NCBI GenBank assembly: GCA_038212015.1
Contig: JBBQUY010000006.1
Span: 3,016-67,015 of the forward strand
Length of the DNA: 64,000 bases
Origin: Gaiellales bacterium
Lineage (GTDB): Bacteria > Actinomycetota > Thermoleophilia > Gaiellales > SKUG01
Direction: 5' to 3'
Part shown: positions 7,545 through 57,640 of the stretch, one piece after another
Position numbering within the stretch: the stretch's first letter is position 1
Layout: every line of letters starts with the position of its first letter
Program-made: the position numbers and the translations under genes
The notes under the pieces: model-generated
What the model was told of the DNA's origin: nothing
Databases searched by the model: none
The model's input: only the letters and a program-made list of their open reading frames with translations

Positions 7545-9329
7545 TCAGCTGCCTTCGACCGGGCGGCGCGCGACGCACAGCGCCTCGGCCAGGCGGATCG
7601 TGTCGTCGTGCGGCAGGCCGCGTGAGTGGGCGAGCGCGATACCGAGCACCTGGGCTGCGTACTCCCAGAGCGCGAGCGGACCGGAGCGACACAGCTGTTC
7701 CCAGCCAAACGGAATGATCAGCTTCGCGACCGTGGACTCGGCGTCCCCGGAGGCGCGGTCGATGCCGATCGACTGGCGCACGATGCGGCCCCAGAATGCG
7801 TGGGCGGTGGCGCGGTTGGCTTCGCGCACGGCTCCGGAGCCCTGCACGAGCGTGCCACTGCGCGCGACGATGCGTGCGAGTTCGTGGTCGGTGCGCAGCG
7901 AATCGTGCAGCGCCTCGAGCCAGGTGTCCGCCGAATCCTTCTCGTGGCGCTGGCGCAGCGTGCCCTGGCGCAGCTTCGCGGCGGCGGCCATGCGGCGCAG
8001 GCGCAGCGCGCCCGAGATGCTCGTGGTCGTGACGCGCTCCACGCGCAGCGGCTGCAGCAGTGGCGGCACGCTCGCGGCGGGCGAGCCCATCGCGGGCATT
8101 CGCCTGGAGCGAGTCGCGGCGCGGTCGAGCGCGTCGAGCGGAATGTGGTCGACGAGCTCGTATGCGTCTCGGCGCGAGATGCCGTGGGCGTTGCGCAGGT
8201 CCTTGATGCGCCCGGTGCGGCGCTTGCGGTTGGCGATCCATGCGGCGTCGGGCCACACGAGCATCGCCGCGAGCGCGCGGATCGAATCCGGCACCACCGA
8301 CGCATGCGGCTCGACCACGCCGGTGTGCTCGCGCTCGGCAGCTGCGATGTCGGCGACGTGGTCGACGAGGATCGTCGCCCACTCGGCGTCCTGGAACTCG
8401 CACAGCAGGTAGATGGCGTCCTGCAGCACGCTCAGGTGGTCGGGGTGCACGATCTCGGCGGCGCGCTCGATGAGCGCCTCGAATCCGAGCCGTGAGGCGT
8501 GGTCGATGTGAGCGCGGCGCTTGCGCGTGAACTGGTAGGCGGTCTTGACGCGGCGCACGCGGCCACCTTCGCGGCGACCCAGGCGGGTGCCGCGCCGGAA
8601 CGCCTCGGCGTACAGCTTGTCGTCGACGCCGAGCGCGCGAATGCCTGCCACGAAGTCGGCTTCGTCGAGACCGGTGATGCCGGTGCCGCAGATCGCGCCG
8701 AGCAGCAGGCCGGGCTGCGCCGCCGACGGCAGGTGGTACCAGCCGGCGACTTCGTGGCCGTCGAAGGCGTAATAGGCGAGCGCAGACGTTCGGGCGATCG
8801 CATCGATCTCGCGCTCGGTGAGCACGTGCTCGGGGGCGACGTCGCGCTCGACGCTCGTGAACGCGCGGCGGCACGAGGACACGACGGTGGTGACGTCGGA
8901 GTCGACGAAGCCAGCGTCGATCGCACGAACGAGCTCGAGGTGCTCGCCGGCGACCACGAGGTCGACCGCGCCCCAGGGAACGTCGCCCAGTGCGTCTTCG
9001 ATGTCGGCATCGGCGGCGACTTCGACGTACATGCCGTGCGGCATGCGCGAGTTGCCGGCAAGCGGCACGGCCTGCGCGACGATGCCGGCCTCGCGGCAGG
9101 CGAGCAGCAGCCAGTCCACGACGAGCAGCGTTCGATCCTCGGTGAGGCCGCACACGAGCGCGGACCACGGGCGGATCGCGGCGGCACCGCGCACGGGCAG
9201 GGCGGCGACAGCGGCGGGGAGCACCGTCTGATCCGGCGCCGAAGCCGCACGTTCGTGACCGGCGTCTGTCACCAACGTGCTGGGGGCGACGGCGGCATCG
9301 ACGGTGCGTGGGGGCAGGGTTCCGGTCAC
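7545..9329 (-). CDS. Indolepyruvate/2-oxoacid:ferredoxin oxidoreductase beta-subunit-like protein (divergent)
   Basis: The N-terminal segment ALVCGLTEDRTLLVVDWLLLACREAGIVAQAV resembles the POR-gamma/IorB nucleotide-fold start. A long C-terminal extension follows, as in IorB/DUF6537-type proteins. GTG start 9329 overlaps the upstream stop (GTGA). Confidence 0.5.
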   Translation of the reverse strand: MTGTLPPRTVDAAVAPSTLVTDAGHERAASAPDQTVLPAAVAALPVRGAAAIRPWSALVCGLTEDRTLLVVDWLLLACREAGIVAQAVPLAGNSRMPHGMYVEVAADADIEDALGDVPWGAVDLVVAGEHLELVRAIDAGFVDSDVTTVVSSCRRAFTSVERDVAPEHVLTEREIDAIARTSALAYYAFDGHEVAGWYHLPSAAQPGLLLGAICGTGITGLDEADFVAGIRALGVDDKLYAEAFRRGTRLGRREGGRVRRVKTAYQFTRKRRAHIDHASRLGFEALIERAAEIVHPDHLSVLQDAIYLLCEFQDAEWATILVDHVADIAAAEREHTGVVEPHASVVPDSIRALAAMLVWPDAAWIANRKRRTGRIKDLRNAHGISRRDAYELVDHIPLDALDRAATRSRRMPAMGSPAASVPPLLQPLRVERVTTTSISGALRLRRMAAAAKLRQGTLRQRHEKDSADTWLEALHDSLRTDHELARIVARSGTLVQGSGAVREANRATAHAFWGRIVRQSIGIDRASGDAESTVAKLIIPFGWEQLCRSGPLALWEYAAQVLGIALAHSRGLPHDDTIRLAEALCVARRPVEGS

Positions 9330-11140
9330 AGGTCCACTCCCGCGACGGCGCGCACGAGCTTGCGGCGCAGGTTCCAGGACAGGCGCTTGGCCCGGCCCGT
9401 GGTGTCGCGGCGACGCAGGTCCCACGTGGCGGGCGACAGCTCGCGGACGGGGTCGAGCGAGGCGTGCGCGGCGGGCACGTCCAGCGCGAGCACGGTGGGG
9501 CCGGCGACGAGTTCCTCGCCGAGCTGCACGAGCGCTGTTGCAGCCGTCGGCACGGCGGCGGTGGCGATGCGGTCGGTGCCGACCAGGTCGGGGTCCATGC
9601 CGAAGGTGGACCCGCGGCGCGGTGCGGCGACGCGCTGCACGTCGCCCACGACGATCACGTGCGAGGCGACGCGCATGGAGCGGCAGGCGGTGCCGACGGC
9701 GACGCCGATCGCGCGGGGCGAGCTGCCGTCGACGTACTCGATGGACGCGCCGGCGGCTCCTGCGGCTTCGGTGACGCCGCCGCCCTGGCCGGTGACGACG
9801 AACACGCCGTGACCGGTGCCGGGTGCGGCGCTCGCGGCGCCGTGGGCTGCGAAGACTGCAGCAGGCACGACGGTGAGCGGCACGCCGGTGTCGGTCTGGT
9901 ACGTCGGGTACTCGGCGTCGAGGCGACCGGGCACGCCGATCACGCCCTGCGCGAGCGTCAGGCCGGCGGCGACGACGGGCGAGACGGCGCGGTGCAGGAC
10001 CTCGCCGCGGCGCGGCACGCGGCTGCTGGCGACGGTGCGCGGAGCCGCGACTGCCCCGGCGAGCTCATCGAGTGCGGCGAGGCCAGGATCATCTTCGGAA
10101 AGGCGTGTGCGGGCCCACGACGCAACGAGCGACACGAGCGTCTCGCCACGCAGCGAGCCGGCATCGATCGAGTGGGTGGCCGAGACCGGGGCCGACAGGT
10201 CCGAGCGAAGCTGGTCGGCGATGCGGTCGGCGCGTGGCGCGATCACGCAGGCGTCGTCGACGGCGCCGAGCATTCGCCCGATCGCACCGTCGCGAGCCGG
10301 CACGATGCCGACCGCGCGGCTGGACACGATCGCGACATCGTCCAGGCGCGTTGCGCTACCGACGTCAACGAGGCGCGCTGCGACCTGCGCCAGCGCACGT
10401 TCGGCGGCAACACGGATCGGGCCGGCAACGACGAGCGCGCAGACTGCGCCGCCGTGGGCGCTGCCGAGCGTCGCGTCGATGAGCCCGGCCTGCTCGGCCG
10501 CAGCGGCAATCGAGACGTGGCCCGGGGTACGGATCTCGGCATCCGCATCGGCGGTGGCGACGGGCGAGGCGTCATGGCGGCGGCGAATCGTGCCACGCAT
10601 GCCGAGCGCTCGCTCGCGAATCACGATGAGGGCGGGGCGGCCGGCGGCGACGCTCGCGGCGTAGGCGGCGTCGATGGCGCGGACCAGGCCGATCGCGGTG
10701 GGCTCGGGATCGATGACGAGCGCGTCGTCGATGCGCAGCACGTCCTCGTCGAAGCTGAATCCGACCACGCCGCCGGCACACTGCACTCGTGCGAACTGCT
10801 CGAGGGCAGGGCGCAGGCCTCGTCGTCCGCCGAACACGACCGCGCCGCGCGGGGGAGCGCCGGTGATGCCGCCTGTGGGTGAAGTCACGAGCGGCTCCAG
10901 GGCCGAGCGGCTGCGCAGGCGTCGCAGCACGACGCCGCGGGGCGAGAGCACTCGTTCGCGCGCCTCGTCGATGGCGGCGTCGATCGGGGTGGGGCGATCG
11001 TGCCAGGAGCTGACGATGTATCCCACGCCGTTTTCGAGCAGCGCACGCACGACGACCAGTCCCAGGTCGCCGGTCAGCAGTTCACGGGCGCCGCCATGGG
11101 CACCGGTCGTCTGCTCCATATGCTCCTCAGTCGGGAGCAT
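9326..11140 (-). CDS. Indolepyruvate/2-oxoacid:ferredoxin oxidoreductase alpha-subunit-like protein (divergent, no Fe-S Cys motifs)
   Basis: The N-terminus ELLTGDLGLVVVRALLENGVGYIVSS resembles the LLSGNEA..RGALEAGV start of IorA/PorA. ...VFVVTGQGGG... sits where the TPP-domain MTGGQ motif would be. GGAGGA lies 6 nt before ATG 11140. An alternative ATG lies at 11119. Confidence 0.5.
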   Translation of the reverse strand: MLPTEEHMEQTTGAHGGARELLTGDLGLVVVRALLENGVGYIVSSWHDRPTPIDAAIDEARERVLSPRGVVLRRLRSRSALEPLVTSPTGGITGAPPRGAVVFGGRRGLRPALEQFARVQCAGGVVGFSFDEDVLRIDDALVIDPEPTAIGLVRAIDAAYAASVAAGRPALIVIRERALGMRGTIRRRHDASPVATADADAEIRTPGHVSIAAAAEQAGLIDATLGSAHGGAVCALVVAGPIRVAAERALAQVAARLVDVGSATRLDDVAIVSSRAVGIVPARDGAIGRMLGAVDDACVIAPRADRIADQLRSDLSAPVSATHSIDAGSLRGETLVSLVASWARTRLSEDDPGLAALDELAGAVAAPRTVASSRVPRRGEVLHRAVSPVVAAGLTLAQGVIGVPGRLDAEYPTYQTDTGVPLTVVPAAVFAAHGAASAAPGTGHGVFVVTGQGGGVTEAAGAAGASIEYVDGSSPRAIGVAVGTACRSMRVASHVIVVGDVQRVAAPRRGSTFGMDPDLVGTDRIATAAVPTAATALVQLGEELVAGPTVLALDVPAAHASLDPVRELSPATWDLRRRDTTGRAKRLSWNLRRKLVRAVAGVDL

Positions 11141-11189: not shown

Positions 11190-11322
11190 GTGGCCGTCGC
11201 CTGTGGGGCGTGGCCGTCGGTGCGCACCGCACTGACGTTGGGATCCTCACCGCTCTATCGCGGCTCGGCGGCACTCGCGTTGCAGATGCGGCCACCGAGT
11301 GGCCGTCGTACCGTGGCCGTCG
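11190..11322 (+). repeat. Four direct copies of the decamer GTGGCCGTCG in the iorA / transglutaminase-like intergenic region
   Basis: Copies at 11190-11199, 11210-11219, 11299-11308 and 11313-11322, all in the same orientation and all non-coding. Confidence 0.6.
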
Positions 11323-11417
11323 GCGCCGCAGCGTGGATTCTGGCACGTTGCTTCACGCGGGCGTGCAGGCGCGCTCGCGCGTGGCCCCGCTGTCGGCGCG
11401 CTGACGCAATTCGTGGT

Positions 11418-14608: not shown

Positions 14609-14803
14609 ATGAGCACAGATCCCTTTGCGCCACCAGACGATGCCACCCCGGAAGAGCTCGACGCTGGCGTCACCGAGCGTGTCTTCGACAACCTCGCCGC
14701 CTGGGGATTCATCGCAGTCGCCATAGCGGCCCTCTACCTGGTGTGGGCGACCATCGAGATCCTGACCCAGATTGCCGGCGACATGCCTGGAATTGGAGCC
14801 TGA
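14609..14803 (+). CDS. Small single-TM protein, candidate oxidase subunit IIa-like component
   Basis: 64 aa with one TM (WGFIAVAIAALYLVWATIEIL). Its stop TGA 14801-14803 lies 1 nt before the subunit II ATG. This is the position cbaD occupies in Thermus ba3 operons (from memory). Confidence 0.45.
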   Translation: MSTDPFAPPDDATPEELDAGVTERVFDNLAAWGFIAVAIAALYLVWATIEILTQIAGDMPGIGA

Positions 14804-14804
14804 G

Positions 14805-15377
14805 ATGTCCGAGACGACTCCGACAGCCACACCCCCCGTCCCGGATCCGTCCGAATCGGCGCTCGCACCGCTGCCGGGGCGATGGGCTCGACGAATGCCT
14901 CGCGACGAGTACGTGTTCATGTGGATCGCGATCCTGCTGACCGTCGTGATGTCGGCGTTCCTGGTCGGTTGGATCTTCGTGAGCGACCACAACGTACCGA
15001 CCCGCTCGAAGGCAACGACGCCGACCGAGTTCGGAGAGCAGGTCTCCTCGTTCATGGCCGCAAACGACGCCGAGAACGGCGTGGTCAAGGTCCCGCCCGG
15101 CAAGGACGCCTACGTGATGGCGGAGCGCTACCGCTTCTACCCGGCGCTCGTGCTCAAGGTGAACGAGCCGTACACCATTTGGGTTTCATCGCGCGACGTG
15201 CTGCACGGCTTCTCGCTCGTCGGTTTCAACCGGAGCCTGAACTTCACGGTCGCACCGGGACACGCCTACGGCCTGCGGTTCACGCCGGACAAGACCGGCA
15301 CCTACAAGATCGTCTGCAACGAGTACTGCGGACAAGCGCACCACGCCATGACCGGCACGATCACCGTCGAGGAGTAG
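14805..15377 (+). CDS. Heme-copper oxidase subunit II, B-family (ba3-like), CuA domain
   Basis: Single N-terminal TM (VFMWIAILLTVVMSAFLVGWIF). CuA ligand motif HGF...CNEYCGQAHHAM. GGAG lies upstream of ATG 14805. Confidence 0.85.
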   Translation: MSETTPTATPPVPDPSESALAPLPGRWARRMPRDEYVFMWIAILLTVVMSAFLVGWIFVSDHNVPTRSKATTPTEFGEQVSSFMAANDAENGVVKVPPGKDAYVMAERYRFYPALVLKVNEPYTIWVSSRDVLHGFSLVGFNRSLNFTVAPGHAYGLRFTPDKTGTYKIVCNEYCGQAHHAMTGTITVEE

Positions 15378-15384
15378 TAGGACC

Positions 15385-17139
15385 ATGGCAACCGCCGAGA
15401 TCACCGCCAGCGCGCTTCCGCTCACCCGCAGCGAGCGCTCCGTCATCTGTCCCGTCACGGGCCTGCGCATCTACGCAGGTGCGCGCGCCCTCACGCTCGC
15501 CAACGCCGTCGCCGCGGTACTTGCACTCGCGGCAGGCGGCACGTTCGCGCTGCTCGTGGGACTGACGCGCACGCCATCGGTGAGCATGCTCAAGCCCGAG
15601 GCGTACTACCAGTCGCTCACGGGGCACGGCGTCGCGGCGCTGATTCTCTGGCCCATCTTCTTCGAGGTCGCCGCGATGGTGTTCGCCTCGTCGATTCTGC
15701 TCAACACGCGTGTGTGGAGCATGAAGCTGGGCTGGACGTCATTCGCCGCAATGATCGCGGGCACGGCGATGCTGCTCGTGTCGGTGATCAGCGGAAAGGC
15801 GAACGTGACGTTCACCGCATATCCCCCGCTCATCGCCAACCCGATGTTCTACCTCGGCTACATCGTGTTCGCCGTGGGCGTGCTGCTGGCGGTCGTCAAC
15901 TTCTGCATGACGATCCTGCTCGCGCGCCAGGAGCGCATGAAGAACAAGTCCCTGCCGCTGCTCACCTATGGCGTGGCGGTGGCCGCGCTGCTCGCGCTCA
16001 TGGGCATCGTCGCCGGACTCGTCGCGCTCGTGCCCGCCTGGCTCTACTCGATGGGCCTGATCGGCTCGGTCGAGCCGATCGTCTACCGCGCGTGGTTCTG
16101 GGGTCTCGGCCATACGCTGCAGTACGTCAACGTGGTGGCGATGGTGGTGGCGTGGTACGGCATCATCGCGCTCACCCTGCGCGCCGGACCGGTCAACCAG
16201 AAGTTCAGCCGGCTGGCGTTCATCCTGTACCTCGTGTTCGCGGTGCCGGTGCTCGGCCATCACTTCATCGTCGATCCGGGCCTGTCGACGAGCGTCAAGG
16301 TGTTCGGGGCCTCGTTCATGGGCTTCGCGCTCGGCATCCCGAGCCTCATGCACGGCCTCGCCGTGATGGGCGCCGTCGAATCTCGCATGCGACGCGGTGG
16401 CGGCGTGACGGGCCTGTTCGGCTGGATCCGCGCGCTCGACTGGAAGCATCCCGGCATCGCCGCACTCGGCGTGTCGCTCGTGCTGTTCGCGATCGGTGGC
16501 TGGTCCGGATCGGCACAGACCACGCTGCAGCTCAACATGCTGACCCACAACACGATGTGGGTGCCGGCGCACCTGCACGCAGTTGTCGTCGGCGGCATGA
16601 CGCTCGGCTTCATGGGCTTCGCGTACTACCTGGTGCCGATCCTCGCCGGTCGTCGCCTGTTCTCGCGGCGCCTCGCGACGATCCAGGTGTACCTGTACGG
16701 CGGTGGCCTGCTCTTCATGATCGCGATGCAGTCCTGGGCCGGCATCATCGGCGTGCCGCGACGTACCGCGTCGATCGAGTACGGCGGACAGGCCCCGACG
16801 AGCTGGGAGCTCCCGATGAACCTGATGGGCGTCGGCGTGACGCTCGCCGCGCTCGGCGGCCTGATCTTCATCCTCCAGATGGTGCTGACCCTGATCGTCG
16901 GCAAGCCGACGTCGGATCCCGCCGAACTCGTTCCGAGCGCGAGCAAGATCCCGCTGGCGGACCCGCCCACGCTCGCAGCCGCGACGGCGAACGTCGGTGG
17001 CCCGAACGACGGCGGCACGCCCGACCGGCGCCTCGAGACGCCCGGCGCGTTCAGCGTGATGACCATCTACGTGGCCCTGTTCCTGGTGACCTGGCTCGCG
17101 TACTTCGCATACCTGACCCTGCACTGGGCCGTGAACTGA
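15385..17139 (+). CDS. Heme-copper oxidase subunit I, B-family (ba3-like)
   Basis: Polytopic, 584 aa. Contains GHTLQY (CuB His plus cross-link Tyr spacing), GHHF (CuB His pair) and PAHLHAVV (heme ligands). Confidence 0.85.
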   Translation: MATAEITASALPLTRSERSVICPVTGLRIYAGARALTLANAVAAVLALAAGGTFALLVGLTRTPSVSMLKPEAYYQSLTGHGVAALILWPIFFEVAAMVFASSILLNTRVWSMKLGWTSFAAMIAGTAMLLVSVISGKANVTFTAYPPLIANPMFYLGYIVFAVGVLLAVVNFCMTILLARQERMKNKSLPLLTYGVAVAALLALMGIVAGLVALVPAWLYSMGLIGSVEPIVYRAWFWGLGHTLQYVNVVAMVVAWYGIIALTLRAGPVNQKFSRLAFILYLVFAVPVLGHHFIVDPGLSTSVKVFGASFMGFALGIPSLMHGLAVMGAVESRMRRGGGVTGLFGWIRALDWKHPGIAALGVSLVLFAIGGWSGSAQTTLQLNMLTHNTMWVPAHLHAVVVGGMTLGFMGFAYYLVPILAGRRLFSRRLATIQVYLYGGGLLFMIAMQSWAGIIGVPRRTASIEYGGQAPTSWELPMNLMGVGVTLAALGGLIFILQMVLTLIVGKPTSDPAELVPSASKIPLADPPTLAAATANVGGPNDGGTPDRRLETPGAFSVMTIYVALFLVTWLAYFAYLTLHWAVN

Positions 17140-17142
17140 CAC

Positions 17143-18045
17143 ATGCACGCGACCGGCATCCTCGTCGCTCATGTCGATGGCTCCGGCACGGAGACGCTCG
17201 ACGAGCTGCTGACCTCATGGGAGCGCGCTCCGTCCCTGCTGCTGCTGCTCGGGCTGCTCACCGTCGCCTACGTGCGCGCACTGCGCTCCACCGGACTGGG
17301 TCGTCGCCAGCGCGGCGTTCGACTCGCCGCCTGGCTGGGCTCGATGGTCGCGTTCCTGCTCGCGCTCGGATCACCCGTAGATGCCCTGGGCGCCCATCTG
17401 GTGTCGGGTCACATGCTCCAGCACATGCTGCTCGGTGATGCCGGACCCGCATTGGCGGCGGCAGCATTGACCGGCGGCGTCGGCGCGTCGATGGCGCGAA
17501 CCTTCGCGATCGGTCCATTCCGGACCGTGGCGCGAATCGCGCGGAAGACGCCGGTCGTCGTCGTGGTCTGTGCGTGGGGCGTGACGTGGGGCATGTGGCA
17601 CACGACGTGGGCCTACGAGGCGGCGCTGCGGTCAGCCCCGATTCACATGTTCGAGCACGTGTCGCTGCTGATCGTCGGCATCTGGTTGTGGACCGTGATC
17701 GTCGATCCGATGGGGTCACGCTCGGAGCAGTCGGCAACGCGCATCGGGGTGTCGGTCGCGGCGCTCTTCTTCGGTGCGATCCTCACCAACTCCCTGACAT
17801 ACGTGGACGAGCCGACCTATCCGGCGCTTGTCGGGAACGCGGAGCGGCTGGTGGGATGGACGAGCACGGCGGACCAGCAGCTGGCGGGACTCGTCATGCT
17901 CGGGATGCAGGCGTTCACGATCGGCGTCGCGCTCTGGTACCTGATCCGCCGGCACCTCGCGGCCGGCGCCGACGCTGCCCGCTCCGGCGACCTGCTCGCG
18001 GAGCCGGGGCGCGCTCCGGCTGCGTCGCACCCGCTCACCTGGTAG
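17143..18045 (+). CDS. ctaG: Cytochrome c oxidase assembly protein (Caa3_CtaG family)
   Basis: Multi-TM protein with SGHMLQHMLLGD and MFEHVSLLIVG motifs. It lies immediately after subunit I. Confidence 0.7.
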   Translation: MHATGILVAHVDGSGTETLDELLTSWERAPSLLLLLGLLTVAYVRALRSTGLGRRQRGVRLAAWLGSMVAFLLALGSPVDALGAHLVSGHMLQHMLLGDAGPALAAAALTGGVGASMARTFAIGPFRTVARIARKTPVVVVVCAWGVTWGMWHTTWAYEAALRSAPIHMFEHVSLLIVGIWLWTVIVDPMGSRSEQSATRIGVSVAALFFGAILTNSLTYVDEPTYPALVGNAERLVGWTSTADQQLAGLVMLGMQAFTIGVALWYLIRRHLAAGADAARSGDLLAEPGRAPAASHPLTW

Positions 18046-38067: not shown

Positions 38068-38099
38068 CGAGCACGACCCCCGCATGGAGGTCGTGCTCG
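38068..38099. terminator. Hairpin between convergent genes
   Basis: CGAGCACGACC / GGTCGTGCTCG forms a perfect 11-bp stem with a 10-nt loop. Confidence 0.5.
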
Positions 38100-38130
38100 A
38101 CGTCTTCGACGCGCATTCACACACGCCGTC

Positions 38131-38562
38131 TCACGCATCGACGAGTTCGGTGAGCTGGGCGCCCAGCTCGCGCTGCAGCAGCTCGAACAGCTCTCGCTCC
38201 TCGAATCGGATGTGCGCGGTGAGCTGTTCGCCCAGCGTGTACAGGGCGTTGCCGTTGGGCGCGTCGGCATCACGCTCCATCCGCGCAAACTCTGCGCGGA
38301 AGGCCGCGTGTTCGACGTCCATCCGATCGCGAGCGGCCTGTAGCTCCGCCGAGGACGGCGCGAGGTGCATGGCGCGCTCCAGGAGCTGTTCCTCCTGCTC
38401 GAAGTGCGGCACCAGGCGCGTCGTCGCGAACTCGATGAACGAGGTTCGTTCGTCGCGCCGCGCGTCCTCGCCCGAGTCACGAACTCGCCGGAGTCGCAGT
38501 GCGCGTGCGAGTGCGTTCTGGTGGTCATGTGAGAGCGGGTGCAGTGCTTCGTGTCGCTTCAT
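38131..38562 (-). CDS. Hemerythrin HHE cation-binding domain protein
   Basis: MKRHEALHPLSHDHQNAL..., VPHFEQEEQLLE, DVEHAAFRAEF, LTAHIRFEERELF. I chose ATG 38562. It is divergent from nirK. Confidence 0.7.
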   Translation of the reverse strand: MKRHEALHPLSHDHQNALARALRLRRVRDSGEDARRDERTSFIEFATTRLVPHFEQEEQLLERAMHLAPSSAELQAARDRMDVEHAAFRAEFARMERDADAPNGNALYTLGEQLTAHIRFEERELFELLQRELGAQLTELVDA

Positions 38563-38695
38563 GTCCTTACCGTACTGCGCGCGCACGACCGAGGAATGTG
38601 GCTTTCCCGCACTGCGGCACGGTACGTCCCCCATGTGGTCGTCGCAGCGGTCGACGATGCTCAGGGCAGACCACAACCAGAAAGAGGAGAGGGAC

Positions 38696-39793
38696 ATGAG
38701 CCCGCATCCAGACAACACACCAGGCGAACGCCAGCGGCGGGTCGATTTCGACACGCTCGCACCACTCTCGATCGGCGCGCTCGTCGTGGCCGTCGTCGCC
38801 ATCGCCATCGCGATCGCCTCGCACCAGGACGCAGGAACCGTGTCCTCAGCCGCAGCTGCCGGAGATTCGGCAGCTACTGCATCGTCCGAGACCACGAAGG
38901 TTGCCGACGCCAAGGAGCTCAAGCCGGACTTCTCGGCGAAGCAGATCAACCCGGCGACCGCGCCGGTCAAGCCAGGACCGAAGGTCTTCGAGCTGACCGC
39001 CACCGAGCGGAAGATCAAGGTCGGCAACAAGGTCTACGACCAGTGGACGTTCAATGACCAGGTTCCCGGCCCCGTGATGCGCGTGGTCGTGGGCGACAAG
39101 GTCACGATCAAGATCAAGAACGCGGGCGACAGCAAGCTGCCGCACTCGGTCGACTACCACTCGTCACGGCTCACGCTCGGCGGCGGACACGTCCAGGTGA
39201 ATCCGGGCGAGACCGGTACGTTCGAGTTCACGGCGGAATACCCGGGCGTGTTCATGTACCACTGCGCGACCGCTCCCGTGCTCCATCACATCGGGATGGG
39301 CATGTACGGCATGATGATCGTGCAGCCGAAGGAGGGCTTCGGTCCGGAGATGCCCGAGTACGCGATCGTTCAGCACGAGCTGTACGCAAGCAGCAAGGGC
39401 ATCGACGACGGGGTCATGGACGCCATGGCGTTCAACGGCATCCCCGCGCACTACACGAAGATGCCGATCAAGGTGAAGAAGGACGCAACGCTCCGCATGT
39501 TCGTCCTCAACGCCGGCCCGAGCCAGGTCAGCAGCTTCCACGTGGTCGGCACGGTGTTCGACAAGGTGCTCGATGACGGCAACCCGCGCAACGCAACCTA
39601 CGGTCGCCAGGCACTGATGATGCCGGCCTCTGGCGGCGGCGTGTTCGAGTTCAAGACCGTCGGCGAAGGCCTGTTCCCCTTCGTCACGCACCAGTTCAAC
39701 CACGCGGCCAAGGGTGCGATCGGCATGATCATCGCGGGCGACGGCAAGCCGGGGCCCGGCGCGATCGACGAGGCCAAGGACGGTCACCACTGA
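38696..39793 (+). CDS. nirK: Copper-containing nitrite reductase (NirK-type two-domain multicopper protein), N-terminally membrane-anchored
   Basis: AAAGAGGAGAGGG precedes ATG 38696. One TM (LSIGALVVAVVAIAIAIA). Motifs LPHSVDYH (T1 His / Asp / T2 His), YHCATAPVLHHIGMGMYG (T2 His, T1 Cys, His, Met), SSFHVVG, and HQFNHAAKGA. Confidence 0.75.
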   Translation: MSPHPDNTPGERQRRVDFDTLAPLSIGALVVAVVAIAIAIASHQDAGTVSSAAAAGDSAATASSETTKVADAKELKPDFSAKQINPATAPVKPGPKVFELTATERKIKVGNKVYDQWTFNDQVPGPVMRVVVGDKVTIKIKNAGDSKLPHSVDYHSSRLTLGGGHVQVNPGETGTFEFTAEYPGVFMYHCATAPVLHHIGMGMYGMMIVQPKEGFGPEMPEYAIVQHELYASSKGIDDGVMDAMAFNGIPAHYTKMPIKVKKDATLRMFVLNAGPSQVSSFHVVGTVFDKVLDDGNPRNATYGRQALMMPASGGGVFEFKTVGEGLFPFVTHQFNHAAKGAIGMIIAGDGKPGPGAIDEAKDGHH

Positions 39794-51173: not shown

Positions 51174-51836
51174 ATGCGACGCACGGTCGTCGCCCTCACG
51201 ATTGCCTTGGCCGCACCGCTCACGGCGACGGCGCCGGCGGCCGCATCGCAGATGATCGACGTGGCGGATGCATCCGAACTGCGCGAGGTCATGCGCGAGG
51301 CGACGGCCGAGCAGGGCGTCTGCTACCAGTGGTCGCTCAATCTCGACGACCAGTACACGCTTCAGGGCGGGCTGCAGGATTCCGGCAGCACCGTCACGAC
51401 CGGCGGCTGCCCGAAAGGCACCGTCATCCTCACCGGCAGCGTGTCATACAGCTGCTCGACGTGTGAGACGGGCGACTCTGCGTCGGTGTCGCTGCAGGGC
51501 AGCGGGGTGTCGGTCGTCGCGTCGAGCGACGACTACCTCGACATGCTCGGTCTCGACGACGGCGACCTGCTCGCCGACGAGGGCGACGACGTGGCGTGGC
51601 TCAACATGGTCGGCGGGCTGCCGCTCATGGTGAGCGAGAACAACCCGTCGATCCCGGCGCCGGAGTTCGACGAGACGATCTACCCCGCCGACGACGCGAC
51701 TCCGATGAACACGCCGAGCGCGCTCGGTGACTGGTTCCGCGTCTACGGCTGGACGGTCGCGTTCATCCTGCTCGGGATCGGCATGGCCGTCGTGCTCGGG
51801 CTCTGGATTCGCAAGCAGCGGCAGCTCGCCGCGTGA
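51174..51836 (+). CDS. Secreted, C-terminally TM-anchored acidic Cys-containing protein (hypothetical)
   Basis: Signal peptide MRRTVVALTIALAAPLTATAPAAAS. C-terminal TM WTVAFILLGIGMAVVLGLWI. An alternative GTG at 51150 overlaps the upstream stop. Confidence 0.55.
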   Translation: MRRTVVALTIALAAPLTATAPAAASQMIDVADASELREVMREATAEQGVCYQWSLNLDDQYTLQGGLQDSGSTVTTGGCPKGTVILTGSVSYSCSTCETGDSASVSLQGSGVSVVASSDDYLDMLGLDDGDLLADEGDDVAWLNMVGGLPLMVSENNPSIPAPEFDETIYPADDATPMNTPSALGDWFRVYGWTVAFILLGIGMAVVLGLWIRKQRQLAA

Positions 51837-51873
51837 CACGGGCCGGGTGACCGGCTCTTTCGGGAGGAACGAC

Positions 51874-52299
51874 ATGCAGGACTTCGGCTACGACATCGCG
51901 GCGAGCGCCGCCTACGGTGGTATCGCGCTCGCGCTGCTCGTGTTCGCGTGGATCGCGATCGACCTGCTCATCCCGGCGAAGGTCGGGGTCGAGCTGCTGG
52001 AACACCGCAATGCGAACGTCGCGACCGTGCTTGCCGCGGGCGTGCTCGCGATGTCGATCATCATCGCGTCTGCGATCCATGCGTCCGACGGCAAGCTCGC
52101 GGACGGCATCATCGACACGCTCGGATTCGGCATCGGCGGCATCATCATGCAGGCGCTCGGTGTATGGGTCTTCGATCGCATCACGCCCGGCAAGCTCGGT
52201 GACGTGCTGCACGGCGCGCGCGAGCTGCATCCGGCGTCGATCACGCAGGCGGCATGGCAGATCGGTCTGGGCATCACGCTCGCGGCGGCCATCTCGTGA
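51874..52299 (+). CDS. DUF350-family membrane protein
   Basis: GGGAGGA precedes ATG 51874. Four TM segments with DUF350-like spacing. Confidence 0.65.
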   Translation: MQDFGYDIAASAAYGGIALALLVFAWIAIDLLIPAKVGVELLEHRNANVATVLAAGVLAMSIIIASAIHASDGKLADGIIDTLGFGIGGIIMQALGVWVFDRITPGKLGDVLHGARELHPASITQAAWQIGLGITLAAAIS

Positions 52300-53882
52300 C
52301 GAGCGACGCGCGGGGCGAGGCTGCCTCGCTCGATGGAGATCGCGTCGTCGTGCATCGCGGCGCGAGTGCGCTGCTGCTGGCGGTGACCGCCGCGGTCGCG
52401 GTGTGCGGCCTGCTGTACGAACTCGAGCTGATCGCGCTCGGGTCGTACCTGATGGGTGACGGGCTGCTGCAGACGTCGCTCGTGCTCGGCTCGTTCGTGA
52501 GCGCGATGGGGCTCGGCAGCGTCGCGTCCAAGCGCTGGCTGGACAAGCCGCTGCGTACGTTCGTGACGGTCGAGGCGGTGCTTGCGGTCGCGGGCGGGCT
52601 GAGCGCGTTCGCGCTGTATTGGGCGTTCGCGTGGATGGACGTGTACACGCCGGTGCTGATCGCGGCATCGGTGGTGTGCGGCACGCTCGTGGGCATCGAA
52701 CTGCCGCTGCTGCTCGAGCTGATCCGGCGTGCGCGGGGCACGTCGGGCGGGGGCGATGCAGCCGACCTGCTGGCGGCCGACTACCTCGGCGCGATGGTCG
52801 CCGGCATTGCGTTCCCCTTCCTGGTGCTGCCCGAGCTCGGCCACCTGCGCGCCTCCATCGCGACGGGTGCCCTCAACCTCGGCGCGGGCGCACTCGTGCT
52901 GCTGGTGCCGGGGCTGCGCGCGGGCGGGCTCCGGACGTGGCTGCGCCTCGGCGTGCCGATCGGTGCGGCCGCGCTCGTGCTCGGCGGTGCGTGGCTGCTG
53001 ACCGGACGCTTCGAGGTGTCCCTCCAACAGGAGCTCTACGACGATCCGATCGTGCATGACGAGCAGACTCGCTACCAGCGCATCGTCGTGACGAGCTCCG
53101 ACCAGGGTGCGGACGTTCGCCTGTTCCTGGATGGCGACCTGCAGTTCGCGACAGCCGACGAGCATCGCTACCACGAGTCGCTCGTGCATCCGCTGCTCGC
53201 GCAGGGTCGTCGCGAGCACGTGCTCGTGCTCGGCGGTGGCGACGGTCTCGCGCTTCGCGAGATCCTTCGTTACTCGGATGTGCGGCGCGTGACGCTCGTC
53301 GAGCTCGACCCGGCGATGACGAAGCTGGCGCGCACGCTGCCGGCGCTGCGCGACGCGAATCGCAGCGCGTTCGAGGATCCGCGCGTGGAGGTCGTGCATG
53401 CGGACGCGATGGCGTGGCTGCGCAGTGACGCGCGCCTGGACCATGACGCGGTCGTCGTGGATTTCCCGGATCCGGATCGGCCGGTGCTCGCCAAGCTCTA
53501 CTCGACCGAGATGTACGCACTCATTCGAACGCGGGCGCTGCGGCCGGGCGGTCGGATGGTCGTGCAGGCGGGGTCGCCCTGGTTCGCGCGTGATGCGTAC
53601 TGGTCGATCGAGCGCACGATCGACGAGGCCGGCTTCGCGACGACGCCGTACCACGTGGACGTGCCGTCATTCGGCGACTGGGGCTACGTGCTTGCGTCCG
53701 CGGGTGAACGCGCGCCCCAGCTCCGGCTGGATGCGCCGACGAAGCTGCGCTTCCTGACGTCCGAGGCGCTCACCGCGGCAGGCGTGTTCGGCGCAGACGT
53801 CGCCCGGCGCCCGGTCGAGGTCAACTCGATCGACCGCCCCGTGCTCGTGGAGTACGAGCGCGCCGGCTGGCACGGCTACTGA
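52296..53882 (+). CDS. Membrane-fused polyamine aminopropyltransferase (spermidine synthase-like)
   Basis: GTG 52296 overlaps the upstream stop (GTGA). N-terminal multi-TM domain plus a C-terminal SpeE fold (VLVLGGGDGLALREIL, VVDFPDPD, MVVQAGSP). Confidence 0.8.
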   Translation: MTSDARGEAASLDGDRVVVHRGASALLLAVTAAVAVCGLLYELELIALGSYLMGDGLLQTSLVLGSFVSAMGLGSVASKRWLDKPLRTFVTVEAVLAVAGGLSAFALYWAFAWMDVYTPVLIAASVVCGTLVGIELPLLLELIRRARGTSGGGDAADLLAADYLGAMVAGIAFPFLVLPELGHLRASIATGALNLGAGALVLLVPGLRAGGLRTWLRLGVPIGAAALVLGGAWLLTGRFEVSLQQELYDDPIVHDEQTRYQRIVVTSSDQGADVRLFLDGDLQFATADEHRYHESLVHPLLAQGRREHVLVLGGGDGLALREILRYSDVRRVTLVELDPAMTKLARTLPALRDANRSAFEDPRVEVVHADAMAWLRSDARLDHDAVVVDFPDPDRPVLAKLYSTEMYALIRTRALRPGGRMVVQAGSPWFARDAYWSIERTIDEAGFATTPYHVDVPSFGDWGYVLASAGERAPQLRLDAPTKLRFLTSEALTAAGVFGADVARRPVEVNSIDRPVLVEYERAGWHGY

Positions 53883-53898
53883 GACCGAGCAGGAACGT

Positions 53899-53930
53899 CG
53901 AATGCCCGGCGCGTGAGCACCGGGCATTCG
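53899..53930. terminator. Perfect 11-bp hairpin after the speE-like gene
   Basis: CGAATGCCCGG-N10-CCGGGCATTCG, 17 nt after the stop. Confidence 0.55.
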
Positions 53931-54081: not shown

Positions 54082-54555
54082 TCAGTACCCCCGGAACAGG
54101 CCCTTGAGCCAGCCCATGAATCCCTTCTGCTCCTGGACGTAGAGCACGCCAGTCTTGGGATCGACGAACGAGTTGCCCGGGGTGTTCCAGCTGCCGAACA
54201 GGCCGCTGACACCGCCGAACGCACCACCGATACCGCCGAGCAGTCCACCCTGGTGGGGGACGACGATGTTGTAGTACTTGTTCGTGTAGGTGTTCGAGTT
54301 CGTCACCGACTGGTTGACGTTCCCGTTGGGGGCGAGCGCCGTCTGGTTGGTGGCGTTCACCTGGGGGCGGCCGCTCGACAGCCCGGTGAGCTGTGGGACC
54401 GCGCCGCCGGTCGGCATGCCCATGATCGGCATGCCGGCACCGAACTGGCTGCCTGCGGGGTTGGTGCCGTCGTACGGGCTCGCAAGCGCCGTCGTCGGTA
54501 GGGACTGCATCGTGGGCTGCGCTGCAGCCGCCGATACGGGGTTGATGCTCGCCAT
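54082..54555 (-). CDS. Met/Gly/Asn-rich low-complexity protein, paralog 1 (157 aa, unknown family)
   Basis: GGAGGAG lies 7 nt before ATG 54555. Contains GAGMPIMGMPTGG, VNATNQTALAPNGNVNQSVTNSNT and HQGGLLGGIGGAFGGVSGLFG. No signal peptide or TM. Confidence 0.6.
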   Translation of the reverse strand: MASINPVSAAAAQPTMQSLPTTALASPYDGTNPAGSQFGAGMPIMGMPTGGAVPQLTGLSSGRPQVNATNQTALAPNGNVNQSVTNSNTYTNKYYNIVVPHQGGLLGGIGGAFGGVSGLFGSWNTPGNSFVDPKTGVLYVQEQKGFMGWLKGLFRGY

Positions 54556-54830
54556 GATGGCGTCTCCTCCAGTCAGCTTCGGCTGGTGGGCCGAAGTACC
54601 TCCACTCCGTGCCTGCCGGGCGGTGACGCCGAGCAGACAACCGTGTATCAGGAAGTGGGCATGCCGACGTTGCGGCGTGAGGGGGGAGGATGCGGCCACG
54701 CCGGGGGCGGGGGCATGGCCGGGGGTGGCCGCAGGGGGATACACTGCGGCAATAACCTGCCTGTGAGCAGGTGTTTCATACGGGAGAGGCGTGACCGTCG
54801 ATGGCCTCGTCATGTGGGGTCCTGGCGCGT

Positions 54831-54856
54831 AAAAGCGGCCTCGGCCGGGCCGTTTC
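54831..54856 (-). terminator. Hairpin followed by TTTT (minus-strand orientation) inside the 500-bp spacer between the two paralogs
   Basis: On the plus strand: AAAAGCGGCC-TCGGCCG-GGCCGTTT. On the minus strand the stem is followed by TTTT. It lies about 200 nt after the paralog-2 stop. Confidence 0.45.
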
Positions 54857-55055
54857 CGCATCTGCGGCAGCTGCTGGCCCGGTACGCGACGGACGGTCGT
54901 CACGTACCGGGTGAAGCGTGCTGCCCGCATCCACGGCCCGGCCGGAAGCCTTCACCAGGTGGCGTTGGAAAAGCCTGCGAGGCGGGTGCGCGCGTGCGTT
55001 CGCCCAGAGGGCGGTGCGTGCGCAGCCGTGCTCGCGTGGTGTGGCGTCGCCGGGG

Positions 55056-55622
55056 CTAGATCAGCCGGCCGAGCAGGCCCGAGAGGAGTCCACCGCTGCC
55101 GTAGCCGGGGAACCCGCCGCCACCCCAGCCCCAACCGCTCTGGAACGGGGGCTGCTGGAGCGAGTGCGAGACGTTGTTCACGTTGGAATTCGTGACCGTC
55201 TGGTTCGCACCGCCGGTGGAGACCTGGTTGGTCGTGTTGGACTGGCCGTGGCCGGCGAAGCCCTGCGGGATGCCGCCCATCGGCAGGCCACCCATCGGGA
55301 GACCGCCCATCGGAACGCCCATGGGCAGTCCGAGTGGCATGCCACCGAGGGGCATGCCCATGCCGAGCGGAATGCCGCCCATGGCACCGGCAACGCCGCC
55401 CATCAGGTAGGGATTCTTGGAGCGCTCCTCGAGCCGGGCGCGTTCGATGCGCTCGTTGGCGAGGGCTCGCTCGTACCCCAGCTGCAGGCTCGAGACCTGC
55501 TTCTGGGTCGTGAGCTTGCTGTTGTAGTAGGTCGACGCGCTGACGACGCCGCCGTTCATGCCGTTCATGCCGTTCATCCCGAGCATGCCGTTCTGCGGGT
55601 AGACGCGAATGCGTACTGCCAT
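55056..55622 (-). CDS. Met/Gly/Asn-rich low-complexity protein, paralog 2 (188 aa, unknown family)
   Basis: GGAGG lies 7 nt before ATG 55622. Contains NGMLGMNGMNGMNGG, a predicted helical segment (QLGYERALANERIERARLEERS), MGGIPLGMGMPLGGMPLGLPMGVPMGGLPMGGLPMGGIPQG, SNTTNQVSTGGANQTVTNSNV and GWGWGGGGFPGYGSGGLLSGLLGRLI. Confidence 0.6.
   Translation of the reverse strand: MAVRIRVYPQNGMLGMNGMNGMNGGVVSASTYYNSKLTTQKQVSSLQLGYERALANERIERARLEERSKNPYLMGGVAGAMGGIPLGMGMPLGGMPLGLPMGVPMGGLPMGGLPMGGIPQGFAGHGQSNTTNQVSTGGANQTVTNSNVNNVSHSLQQPPFQSGWGWGGGGFPGYGSGGLLSGLLGRLI
55263..55403 (-). repeat. Imperfect tandem coding repeats (M-G-G-[LI]-P / G-M-P-L-G units). A second short 9-nt x3 repeat (GMN) lies at 55551-55577
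   Basis: Read directly from the sequence (plus strand ...CCCATCGGCAGGCCACCCATCGGGAGACCGCCCATCGG...). Confidence 0.85.
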
Positions 55623-55876
55623 GGTAGTGCCTCCTGGTGTGCGCCGACCGCGAGGGGTGTGATGCGGGACCGGCGTCTGGTGCGAGGGTGGACCGCCGCG
55701 CATCTGGTTCCCGTGGCGTCCGTTGCGACCCGAAGGTCGCGCTGGCCGTCATCGCCACGAGGATGTGCGACGTGTCTCATCCGTCCATCGCTTCTGGTGT
55801 TGCGCGGTGTCGCATGTCAGTCGACGCGTTGGCACCAGTCGGCCGCGCGGTGGCCATGAGCGGCCGCCCGGGGATG

Positions 55877-57640
55877 TCAGTCGCCGGCGGGCGATTCGTC
55901 GTCGCGGCGGCGCTCGACGCGCTCGCGGCGGCGGTCGATGCGACCCGACAGCGCGAGGTGTCGCAGCGCGACTTCCGCCATCTCGCGGCCGGTGACGTTC
56001 TCCTCGTCGACGACCTCGTCGGCGCCGGCAGCGGCGATCTCGTCGACGAACCTGTTGTAGCGGCCGCGGGCGACGATCGGCAGGTCGGGTGCGAGCTGAC
56101 GTGCCTGCGCCACGATCGTGCGGATCGCGACCGGGTCGGGGATCGACACCACGAGGATGCGTGCGGTCGAGAGGTTGGCGCGCTGCAGGATCTCCGGTCG
56201 CGCCGCGTCGCCGAACACCACGCGCGTGCCGGGCGGGAGGTCGTCGTCGGTGCCGCCGGTCTCGGCGCGCGGGTTGAGTTCGATGACCGTGACGGGCACG
56301 TTCGATGCGGCGAGCGCTGCCGTCACCGCGCGACCGGACGGCCCGACGCCGACGACGAGCGCATGGTCGCCGTATGCGTGCTCGACGATGTCGCCGTCCG
56401 GGTCGACGCCCTGCCCGGCGGCGAGTGCGCGTCGATGCAGCACTCCGCTCGTTGTGGAGATCAGGCCCGGCGTCATGAGCAGGGTGAGCACCGAGACGGA
56501 CACGAGCAGGCGGAAGGTGTCATCTCCGACGAGCCCTACCGACGAGCCCATCGTCAGGACCGCGAACGAGAACTCGCCGAGCTGCGCGAGTGAGGCCGCC
56601 GCCATGATCGCTGCGGGAGCCGGAACGCGAGCGACGGTCGCGGCGGTCCACGTCAGGAGCGCCTTGCCGAAGACGAGTGGCACCACCACGAGCAGCACCA
56701 GCCAGAAGTTCTCGAGCATCCACTGTGCGTCGGCGAGCATCCCGACGTAGGCGAAGAAGATGGCGGTCAGCGCCATGCGGATCGGGGCTATCTCGCTGCG
56801 CACCTGCGGCGCGAAGGCGGCATCGGCCATGACGATGCCGGCCACGAATCCGCCCAGTGCGGGCGACAGGTCGAGCTTCCAGCACAGGCCGATGGCGCCG
56901 AGCGAGACGGTGAGCGACATCACTGCGAGCAGCTCGCGCGCATTGCCGTGCATCGCCTTCTCATACATCGTTCGCATGAGGACGCGCTCGACGAAGATCA
57001 CGAGCAGGACGAGCCCTGCGAGCTTGGCGAACGCGATGCCGAACTCGGTCAGGAACCCCGCCTGTTCCCCGCTCACCTCGGCGCCGGGCAGCAGCGGGAT
57101 CATGAGCAGCACGAGCACGACGAGCACGTCCTGGGCGATGAGCACGCCCGTCGAGACGAGGCCGTGCACGCTGTCGCTCTCGGCGCGGTCGGCGAGCACG
57201 CGGATGACGACGGCCGTGCTCGAGAGGCTCACCGCCACGCCGACGACGAACGCCGCCGACAGCGAAAGTCCCGCAGCGACGGCAACGGCGCCCGCAGCGA
57301 CGGTGGTCAGCACGACCTGCAGCGAACCGGCGACGAGCGCCGTGCCGCCGAATTTCCGGACCTTGTTGAGGGGCAGGTCCAGCCCGACGGTGAACAGCAG
57401 CAGCGCGACGCCGACTTCACCCATGAACGAGAACGACTGGATGTCTTCGATGAGTCCGAGCGACGAGGGGCCGCCCACGACGACGCCCGCGAGCAGATAG
57501 CCGACGAGCACGCTCTGGCCGAATCGTTCGGCGATGAGCCCGAACACGACGCACACGCCGAGCACGATCACGACGTCGGTGAGCACGTTGATGCTGCTGG
57601 ACGGCGCGGTCGCGGCCGCGACGAGCGTGTCCAGGATCAC
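55877..57640 (-). CDS. CPA2-family cation:proton antiporter with a C-terminal TrkA-N/RCK domain (KefB/C-like)
   Basis: 12-13 TM Na+/H+ exchanger-type domain plus a Rossmann GxGxxG (ALVVGVGPSGRAV). GTG 57640 overlaps the sufU stop (GTGA). Confidence 0.85.
   Translation of the reverse strand: MILDTLVAAATAPSSSINVLTDVVIVLGVCVVFGLIAERFGQSVLVGYLLAGVVVGGPSSLGLIEDIQSFSFMGEVGVALLLFTVGLDLPLNKVRKFGGTALVAGSLQVVLTTVAAGAVAVAAGLSLSAAFVVGVAVSLSSTAVVIRVLADRAESDSVHGLVSTGVLIAQDVLVVLVLLMIPLLPGAEVSGEQAGFLTEFGIAFAKLAGLVLLVIFVERVLMRTMYEKAMHGNARELLAVMSLTVSLGAIGLCWKLDLSPALGGFVAGIVMADAAFAPQVRSEIAPIRMALTAIFFAYVGMLADAQWMLENFWLVLLVVVPLVFGKALLTWTAATVARVPAPAAIMAAASLAQLGEFSFAVLTMGSSVGLVGDDTFRLLVSVSVLTLLMTPGLISTTSGVLHRRALAAGQGVDPDGDIVEHAYGDHALVVGVGPSGRAVTAALAASNVPVTVIELNPRAETGGTDDDLPPGTRVVFGDAARPEILQRANLSTARILVVSIPDPVAIRTIVAQARQLAPDLPIVARGRYNRFVDEIAAAGADEVVDEENVTGREMAEVALRHLALSGRIDRRRERVERRRDDESPAGD

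Follow-up and report, generated by a model that had tools for sequence, protein, structure and literature searches.

Curli (CsgA/CsgB) and other bacterial functional amyloids such as FapC and the chaplins are small Gly/Asn/Gln-rich proteins, encoded by neighbouring genes, that have in common a strand-turn-strand motif in which Q and N positions are conserved. Elastin-like, abductin-like and prion-like compositions drive coacervation or the formation of elastic networks, and leaders that sequester the Shine-Dalgarno sequence (SD) are the usual design of RNA thermometers. In pairs built on bacterial amyloid signalling sequences (BASS), one partner is an NLR (NB-ARC or NACHT combined with repeats) whose N-terminus bears the motif, which in the second partner stands at the C-terminal end. 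The genomic hallmark by which BASS are defined is a short motif that two neighbouring collinear genes have in common (10.1101/2020.01.06.895854). Here we describe a locus that recalls each of these systems, namely two adjacent minus-strand genes, called A and B, in a stretch of 64,000 nucleotides (the window, ~69% G+C) from a Gaiellales bacterium (assembly GCA_038212015.1, contig JBBQUY010000006.1, positions 3,016 to 67,015). Of greatest value among the new results is the finding that the spacer between the two genes and the region upstream of A hold previously undescribed candidates for structured RNAs, and our best guess for the proteins themselves is that they self-assemble.

Like the amyloid genes just named, A and B are adjacent and encode small Gly/Asn/Gln-rich proteins sharing one strand-turn-strand motif with conserved Q and N, and, as in curli, one partner (here B) has an extra terminal segment, a possible anchor. 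There is, however, no sequence or Pfam relationship to curli, each protein has one hairpin where curli has five repeats, both are mostly linker, and both lack signal peptides and dedicated secretion genes. The tandem (L/V/I)P(M/L)GG and (MNG)n repeats of A and its few charges recall elastin-like, abductin-like and prion-like low-complexity domains, although this likeness of A and B is compositional only, the repeats are not conserved in the family and there is no sign of a secreted matrix. The conserved end of B, 11-14 residues of the form G-W-(L/F)-K-(R/G)-L-F-R-G-Y, is predicted to be helical and strongly amphipathic, as are the C-terminal targeting helices of MinD and FtsA; this possible resemblance to membrane-targeting helices, for which a hydrophobic-moment calculation is the sole support, is a lead, and B has no ATPase or actin-like domain. 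At the RNA level, the long conserved leaders with covarying hairpins and an SD-complementary pyrimidine box resemble translational riboswitches, the ROSE and fourU thermometers and the cspA 5' untranslated region, and a possible competing purine box is a further trait of SD-sequestering leaders; unlike the known examples, they match none of the 4227 Rfam models, a conserved branched terminator domain lies upstream of the B leader, and their sequestering helix is putative. With BASS, HET-s/HRAM and RHIM motifs (10.1101/2020.01.06.895854) the locus shares a Q/N/G-rich motif of ~25-35 residues in two neighbouring collinear gene products, which by analogy suggests heterotypic templating. It differs in the absence of an NLR partner and of effector domains such as Bell or HeLo, in the internal position of the motif, in the long and structured gap between the genes, and in being syntenic among housekeeping genes.

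A and B are real, selected genes and not chance open reading frames (ORFs), as judged from their homologs, conserved synteny and ratios of nonsynonymous to synonymous substitution (dN/dS). The initial annotation had called minus-strand ORFs of 157 and 188 codons, each with a GGAGG-type ribosome-binding site, and our re-reading of the sequence agrees. For A, an upstream ATG would give a protein of 215 residues; the shorter start is used in all aligned homologs of both A and B, so the annotated coordinates are right. An in-frame extension of B to 282 residues (54082-54930, minus strand), open for 125 codons upstream and spanning the terminator and leader, was rejected as an artefact of high G+C, its frame being interrupted by stops in nine of 18 relatives. 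The gap between A and B is exactly 500 nt in the window, in which no further copy of either gene was found; the exact window protein A had no match in a look-up of public assemblies. Neither protein has a 19-residue segment above 1.2 on the Kyte-Doolittle scale (maximum 1.15-1.19), a hydrophobic N-terminal segment, a twin-arginine motif or an N-terminus resembling a signal peptide, in accordance with the earlier reading that neither has a signal peptide or a transmembrane helix.

Among 5.8 billion proteins we found 101 homologs of A and 84 of B, all unnamed or "hypothetical" and none with a Pfam domain; their named sources are Thermoleophilia or Gaiellales metagenome-derived genomes of uncultured organisms. 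A profile of the N-terminal domain of A matched only 55 cluster representatives among 1.84 billion, 54 of them small G/Y/M-rich proteins, and the examined matches start with M-[ASP]-[VI]-[RVH]-[ILF]-R-[VI]-[YHRN]-P or a closely similar sequence. Wherever enough DNA was available the gene order was sufS, sufU, a kefB-like exchanger gene, A, spacer and B (A-spacer-B in ~20 distinct loci), with A and B collinear in all of them. The dN/dS values were 0.22-0.42 for B against ten relatives and 0.21-0.58 for A against nine, fast-evolving linkers included in both. Thus the pair and its spacer are syntenic and the proteins are under purifying selection, two points that the initial annotation had proposed to check. 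It had recognised no family, and no confident match to a characterised one emerged: scans of A, B and a third family, A' (described below), gave nothing in Pfam, even at E<=10 and including Curlin_rpt and chaplin, nor in NCBIfam, PHROGs or PADLOC; profile searches of the PDB gave noise only (E>0.2), and a literature search on the N-terminal motif of A found no papers. By these comparisons A and B are an orphan family confined to Thermoleophilia. They are a clean case of a deeply conserved, wholly uncharacterised family in an abundant, mostly uncultured class of soil Actinomycetota.

The spacer, 318-612 nt long in 16 loci, keeps its sequence even where protein A is less than 50% identical. In distant pairs, with B proteins below 65% identity, the leader core is 65% identical versus 46% at four-fold sites, a value near saturation. 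The whole 521-nt spacer RNA folds at -247 kcal/mol (z = -5.3 versus dinucleotide shuffles). The spacer had been described as 500 bp of non-coding DNA, and it is non-coding and of that length, but it is not passive, being both conserved and structured. A hidden small ORF was considered and rejected, with stops in every forward frame in several loci and similarity jumping between frames; the conserved blocks carry 1-nt indels.

In the leader of B, the predicted pairs were present in 78% of cells of an alignment not fitted to the structure, versus 30-44% with slid partners, and the covariation score was 0.193 versus at most 0.10; none of 500 shuffles attained the observed value. Folding of single sequences gave the same four hairpins (mean z -2.0 to -2.8), and the G-U pairs fit the sense strand only. 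The invariant GCAAC loop of hairpin Px is complementary to an invariant GUUG(C/U) 30 nt downstream (95.6% of cells, five G-U pairs), a possible pseudoknot as judged from this complementarity. The invariant C-rich box AUCCUCCCCC is complementary to the SD of B, with 98.9% of cells paired, and the conserved purine box GGAGUGGAGG is a possible rival of the SD for this pairing; in minimum free energy (MFE) folds, five to six of the six SD nucleotides are predicted to be paired in 16 of the 18 loci. A covariance model of this leader (R2), built from 17 loci, found the element just upstream of B in three divergent loci that had been left out (L009, 44 bits; L023, 30 bits; L011, 26 bits).

The leader of A is built on the same plan, though its sequence differs, and its long stem-loop with the AUGACGG internal loop has clear compensatory changes. 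RNAalifold predicted 30 pairs, 12 of them with compensatory changes; pairing held in 92% of cells versus 34-44% with slid partners, and the covariation score was 0.323 versus at most 0.067. Its CCUC box is complementary to the SD of A, and the corresponding covariance model (R1) matches once per locus, with no extra copy and with the leaders of A' not detected. By eye, the ~200-nt region upstream of A' does resemble the A leader (GUGAUGACAG...GACGGAA...GCACCAG, alignment A8), which is an impression only.

Between the two leaders lies a 3' domain of A that begins after ~95 poorly conserved nucleotides past the A stop codon. RNAalifold on 13 loci predicted 23 pairs, 15 with compensatory changes, and the MFE fold of the whole spacer holds the same domain, in which GGCUUCCGGCCGGGCCG pairs with CGGCCCGGCCGAGGCC. 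The hairpin and TTTT terminator reported in the initial annotation can be read in the sequence as CGGCC/GGCCG followed by CUUUU (54831-54852), yet the hairpin is in fact the 3' arm of this larger conserved helix. A strict consensus scan found no canonical terminator because only four U residues follow the hairpin. We consider the domain a candidate for a conserved branched terminator of A.

Rfam 15 (4227 models) had no match at gathering threshold in the whole window and none for the leaders or the 3' domain even at E<=10; the best sub-threshold match scored 23 bits where the gathering score is 80, and a literature search on structured RNA in Thermoleophilia found nothing relevant. From the alignments, then, the A leader, the A 3' domain and the B leader are conserved, covarying RNA structures without an Rfam family, and both leaders show what marks a riboswitch-like leader, a conserved sense-strand structure upstream of the gene with compensatory changes. 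Together these three candidates amount to ~640 nt of directly testable riboregulators.

The 5' part of the B leader has a partial look-alike elsewhere in the window (11218-11334, minus strand), with UGCGGC..CGGCCAC-loop-GUGGCCGCAUC...UGCAAC...GCGAUAGAGCGGUG, and an indolepyruvate-oxidoreductase-like gene (9326-11140) begins 78 nt downstream of it, with a DUF6537 ORF next in line. The look-alike scores 19 bits with model R2 (E ~0.01 in a 248-kb search), and the core pattern occurs twice in the window versus 0.4 times expected. It may be due to chance, or to a shared 5' hairpin or operator. Model R2 also gives weak matches in the 5' GGCC-box region of A leaders (L001 8649-8753, 17.5 bits; L017 4705-4833, 14.3 bits), and the A and B leaders may have in common a GGCC hairpin of shared ancestry, or a binding site for one and the same factor. 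A promoter or operator motif GGCC...CCTGC shared by A, B and A' was rejected, with 11 matches in the window versus 8.8 in shuffles.

The proteins are modular (Table 1). Linkers are 36-56% identical with 14-25% gaps, and the conserved modules between them 69-93%. BLASTP aligns A with B at E 4e-6, and profile-profile comparison (hhalign) aligns 36 columns only, those of the Q/N/T block (96% probability, E 4e-9), with eight invariant positions over both families: Q-x-N-x-T-N-Q-x-[SA]-x(1-4)-G-x3-Q-x-V-x-N-x-N. A profile of this block retrieved from the 5.8 billion proteins two fragments of the A family and nothing else. In these comparisons A and B are two modular proteins with one common module, the Q/N/T hairpin being their sole homologous part. 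The two had been presented as paralogs, which is correct for this module of ~30 residues and not for the remainder; of the three shared features then listed, the Asn/Thr block is homologous, while the Met/Pro/Gly repeats, in fast-evolving linkers, and the GGLL(G/S)G tail, counted among the unconserved linkers, are alike in composition only. B ends in GNSF(I/V)DPKTGVLYVQ followed by GW(L/F)KRLFRGY. Both proteins are 17-22% Gly with polar linkers, charged residues (K+R+D+E) number only 9 of 157 in B and 16 of 188 in A, and distant homologs have G/Y-rich runs. The third family, A' (113-144 residues), is encoded elsewhere beside housekeeping genes and has the invariant N-terminal strand and the ~40-residue helix of A, with a C-terminal end YNPYAASMLGSS...FFGSLGLGGMF; at L024 8001-8345, L025 8001-8375 and L026 855-1229 (114-124 residues there) it lies between genes for a methyltransferase and the CCA-adding enzyme, near pheST.

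AlphaFold2, supplied with the family alignments, gave a mean predicted local distance difference test (pLDDT) of 47 for A and 49 for B, and we predict both to be largely disordered. In the model of A there is a long helix over residues 29-69 and a low-confidence β-hairpin (128-146) exactly at the Q/N/T block; that of B shows a helix at its end (146-154, pLDDT <60), preceded by a small hairpin (129-140), and the last 11 residues of B have a helical hydrophobic moment of 0.60, the highest in the protein. Short conserved modules in disordered, repeat-expanding linkers are the pattern expected of bacterial scaffold, amyloid and condensate proteins, of which, to our knowledge, few are known.

Table 1. 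Features of the A/B locus, in window positions. Percentages are identities to the window residue in alignments of 28 A proteins (A3) or 20 B proteins (A2).
Feature	Position	Strand	Details
A 5' leader, structured	55623-55880	minus	258 nt between kefB and A; alignment A7, 15 loci
GGCC boxes of A leader	55831-55867	minus	
Long stem-loop of A leader	55702-55764	minus	internal loop AUGACGG
C-rich box of A leader	55678-55691	minus	CCACCCUCGCACCA
A SD	55629-55636	minus	CAGGAGGC
Gene A	55056-55622	minus	188 aa; AGGAGG 7 nt before ATG
A N-terminus	55593-55622	minus	MAVRIRVYPQ; 93%
A (MNG)n repeat	55551-55593	minus	in G/M/N/Y linker (56%)
A predicted helix	55416-55538	minus	residues 29-69; 69% over residues 28-72
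A Pro/Gly/hydrophobic linker	55254-55405	minus	(L/V/I)P(M/L)GG repeats; 47%
A Q/N/T β-hairpin (predicted)	55173-55253	minus	residues 124-150; 72%
A linker between Q/N/T block and tail		minus	40%
A Gly-Leu tail	55059-55094	minus	GGLLSGLLGRLI (GG(F/L)LSGLLGALI); 76%
A 3' domain and candidate terminator	54829-54960	minus	RNAalifold on 13 loci
Box of A 3' domain	54953-54959	minus	CCUGGUG
Long helix of A 3' domain	54934-54950 with 54839-54852	minus	GGCUUCCGGCCGGGCCG paired with CGGCCCGGCCGAGG(CC)
Hairpin enclosed by A 3' helix	54878-54911	minus	conserved loop ACCGUC
U-run after A 3' helix	54831-54836	minus	GCUUUU
B 5' leader, structured	54556-54809	minus	alignment A5 (18 loci), RNAalifold, single folds, covariance model R2
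B leader box	54796-54809	minus	CGAGGCCAUCGACG
B leader element	54767-54777	minus	GAAACACCUGC
B leader element	54726-54733	minus	UGCGGCCA
B leader hairpin P2	54693-54721	minus	
B leader C-rich box	54682-54691	minus	AUCCUCCCCC
B leader hairpin Px	54662-54680	minus	loop GCAAC
Complement of Px loop	54637-54641	minus	GUUG(C/U)
B leader hairpin Py	54611-54638	minus	
B leader purine box	54599-54610	minus	ACGGAGUGGAGG
B leader hairpin Pz	54577-54596	minus	
B SD	54564-54571	minus	UGGAGGAG
Gene B	54082-54555	minus	157 aa; GGAGGAG 8 nt before ATG
B box		minus	ASPYDGTNPA, residues 24-34; 85%
B variable Gly/Met/Pro linker		minus	36%
B conserved motif		minus	VPQLTGL; 82%
B Q/N/T block, putative β-hairpin	54256-54369	minus	extended by YTNKYYNIVVP, residues 63-100; 84%
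B Gly-rich linker		minus	46%
B C-terminal hairpin and amphipathic helix (predicted)	54085-54189	minus	GNSF(V/I)DPKTGVLYVQ, FMGWLKGLFRGY; 76%
Inverted repeat, GC-rich	53899-53930	unstranded	10-11 bp, CGAAUGCCCGG / CCGGGCAUUCG; read from sequence

The initial annotation had offered Met-rich Cu(I) binding or buffering as one hypothesis, and the MxxM-like strings of this genome's copies, with a cytochrome oxidase operon and a multicopper oxidase elsewhere in the window, do invite a role in handling Cu(I) or Ag(I). However, internal Met columns are kept as Met in only 27% (A, 13 columns) and 26% (B, five columns) of homologs. Met content ranges from 1.9 to 9.0% in homologs of A and from 0.7 to 4.6% in those of B, several homologs having less than 2%; L, F, A or Y replace Met in the low-Met homologs. 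The Met runs of the window coincide with DNA tandem repeats, a 9-nt unit repeated 4.8 times (MNG) and 15-nt units repeated 2.8 and 1.9 times (LPMGG-type pentapeptides), and are therefore recent expansions. On these alignments Met-richness is a property of this genome's copies and not of the families. There is no Cys, only one or two His and no Cys or His motif in the proteins, and Met-rich Cu(I) proteins of the CopC/PcoC, CusF and PcoE/SilE types work outside the cytoplasm, for which A and B have no export signal. The window does contain copper enzymes, as had been noted (cytochrome c oxidase subunits II and I with the CtaG assembly factor, 14772-18045, and the multicopper oxidase, 38084-39793, both on the plus strand), but a distance of 15-40 kb separates them from the pair, to which they are not linked: no copper enzymes were found within 10 kb either side at L001 and L002 or within 3-6 kb each side at L017, L019, L021 and L022, and no cop, cus or pco genes in the 3-10 kb fetched per side of six syntenic loci. 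As far as sequence analysis goes the copper reading is refuted, and we give it next to no credence. An attractive but wrong inference is thereby corrected, since Met-rich strings near copper enzymes are here recent microsatellite-like expansions within a linker.

The other hypothesis, self-assembling or phase-separating low-complexity proteins, is our best guess and fits all results, including the predicted disorder, the low charge, the richness in G, N, Q, S, T and Y, the modules set in repeat-expanding linkers and the one common β-hairpin module. The surface-layer role named alongside it is unlikely because there is no export signal. Spelled out as a mechanism, which we put forward tentatively and would stop short of calling probable, A and B would co-assemble and RNA structure would control their translation. 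The shared hairpin would be a surface for self-binding and for binding between A and B, through polar-zipper or cross-β contacts; the flexible linkers and the helix of A would build a higher-order intracellular assembly, fibrillar or condensate-like, and the terminal amphipathic helix would tether B to the membrane. In each leader the C-rich box, invariant as CCUCC in B and as CCUC in A, would act as a translation gate by sequestering the SD, and alternative pairings, such as the GGAGUGGAGG decoy in B, would release it in response to a small ligand, temperature or feedback by the A and B proteins, all of these being candidate triggers. The large terminator domain after A would set the amount of transcription reaching B. 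Identification of the RNA signal would also show when the proteins are needed. Perhaps kefB-A-spacer-B is even a new type of two-component intracellular assembly, a cross-β fibre or condensate whose ratio is set by a new class of signal-sensing structured RNA, with the terminator domain after A coupled to the pseudoknot-capable, SD-sequestering, multi-hairpin leader of B; in this full form we think the idea unlikely.

Several observations weigh against co-assembly under RNA control. The assembly model draws on composition, one shared motif and structure models of low confidence; a single β-hairpin is a small basis for cross-β assembly, its sequence belongs to no known amyloid family, and the AlphaFold2 model of B assigns no secondary structure to the Q/N/T block. 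On the RNA side, Px in fixed register is paired in only ~50% of cells, and pairing between the C-rich box and the SD appears in the MFE folds of only nine of 18 B leaders and eight of 15 A leaders. Covariation cannot confirm the SD-sequestering helix because it is nearly invariant. A consensus scan found no sigma-70-type promoter for B, and both read-through from A and a separate B promoter are possible. The conserved leaders could also serve mRNA stability and not switching.

The main rival is that A and B are stress-protective disordered proteins of the hydrophilin or condensate-chaperone type, made on demand in desiccation, osmotic shock or a temperature shift, with leaders acting as RNA thermometers or osmosensors and without need of a specific A-B assembly. 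The predicted disorder, the Gly content and polar linkers, the constant position beside a KefB-type K+/H+ exchanger, the origin of the family in metagenome-derived assemblies of uncultured Thermoleophilia and the thermometer-like design of leaders that may sequester the SD are all consistent with it. Yet the charge of both proteins is very low, whereas late embryogenesis abundant (LEA) proteins and hydrophilins are highly charged; strictly conserved short modules point to specific contacts and not to bulk solvent effects, and several covarying hairpins per leader are more complex than known thermometers. We regard this rival as unlikely, though it deserves to be taken seriously. The intergenic region might instead be an independent trans-acting non-coding RNA and not a cis-regulator of A and B, given ~450 nt of conserved covarying structure with the z value of the whole spacer, no Rfam family and a partial 5' hairpin look-alike upstream of an unrelated gene. 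Against this speaks that it invariably lies in sense orientation between A and B, ending at the SD of B, as do the terminator-like helix and U-run that end its 5' part directly downstream of A and the like design of the unrelated A leader, where a C-rich box also faces the SD; we find a trans-acting RNA decidedly improbable.

That the shared hairpin serves amyloid formation of a known kind is also doubtful. An exported functional amyloid or surface fibre, with B as a nucleator on the membrane or wall and A as the major subunit in the manner of CsgB/CsgA, would suit the Q/N/G/T-rich strand-turn-strand motif common to two adjacent genes, the amphipathic segment with which B could anchor, and compositions like those of known functional amyloids. 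It would need an unrecognised export route, however, as signal peptide, Tat motif and hydrophobic segment are all lacking and no secretion, sortase or csgEFG-like gene lies in any syntenic neighbourhood, and neither a Curlin_rpt or chaplin match nor a run of repeats accompanies the one hairpin; we judge such a fibre improbable. In a BASS/HET-s-type signalling pair, templating through the motif would switch on an effector, for example membrane damage by the N-terminal domain of A. The shared-motif signature is indeed seen (the hhalign alignment with its eight invariant positions, collinear in all loci). Neither partner is an NLR or has a recognisable domain, though, and both are below 200 residues; PADLOC gives no match, the motif is internal, covering residues 124-150 in A (188 in all) and 63-100 in B (157 in all), a gap of 318-612 nt keeps the genes from abutting, and the pair is a fixed syntenic feature of the core genome beside suf and kef housekeeping genes and not part of a variable defence island. 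Such a pair appears to us very improbable, and co-assembly under RNA control is the explanation that we tentatively retain.

Around the pair, the junction between kefB and A tolerates insertions, as an extra gene lies there in some relatives (L001 6833-8626, L022 893-1612, L020 18-857) and not in the window. The encoded proteins are unrelated secreted ones, with a signal peptide, no Pfam domain and a common C-terminal module of the L022 type. Downstream of B and on the opposite strand (51727-53882, plus strand; L001 10679-15080) are genes for a DUF350 protein and a long protein that resembles spermidine synthase and has a membrane domain at its N-terminus, the L001 version also having DUF2617/DUF4247 and DUF4178. 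This cluster is kept in the closest relative of the window, and in more distant loci a dCTP deaminase gene follows B instead. B and the spermidine-synthase-like gene converge, and an inverted repeat separates their 3' ends. This repeat has only a weak, non-significant Rfam match and, from its sequence and position, is probably a bidirectional terminator, including that of B.

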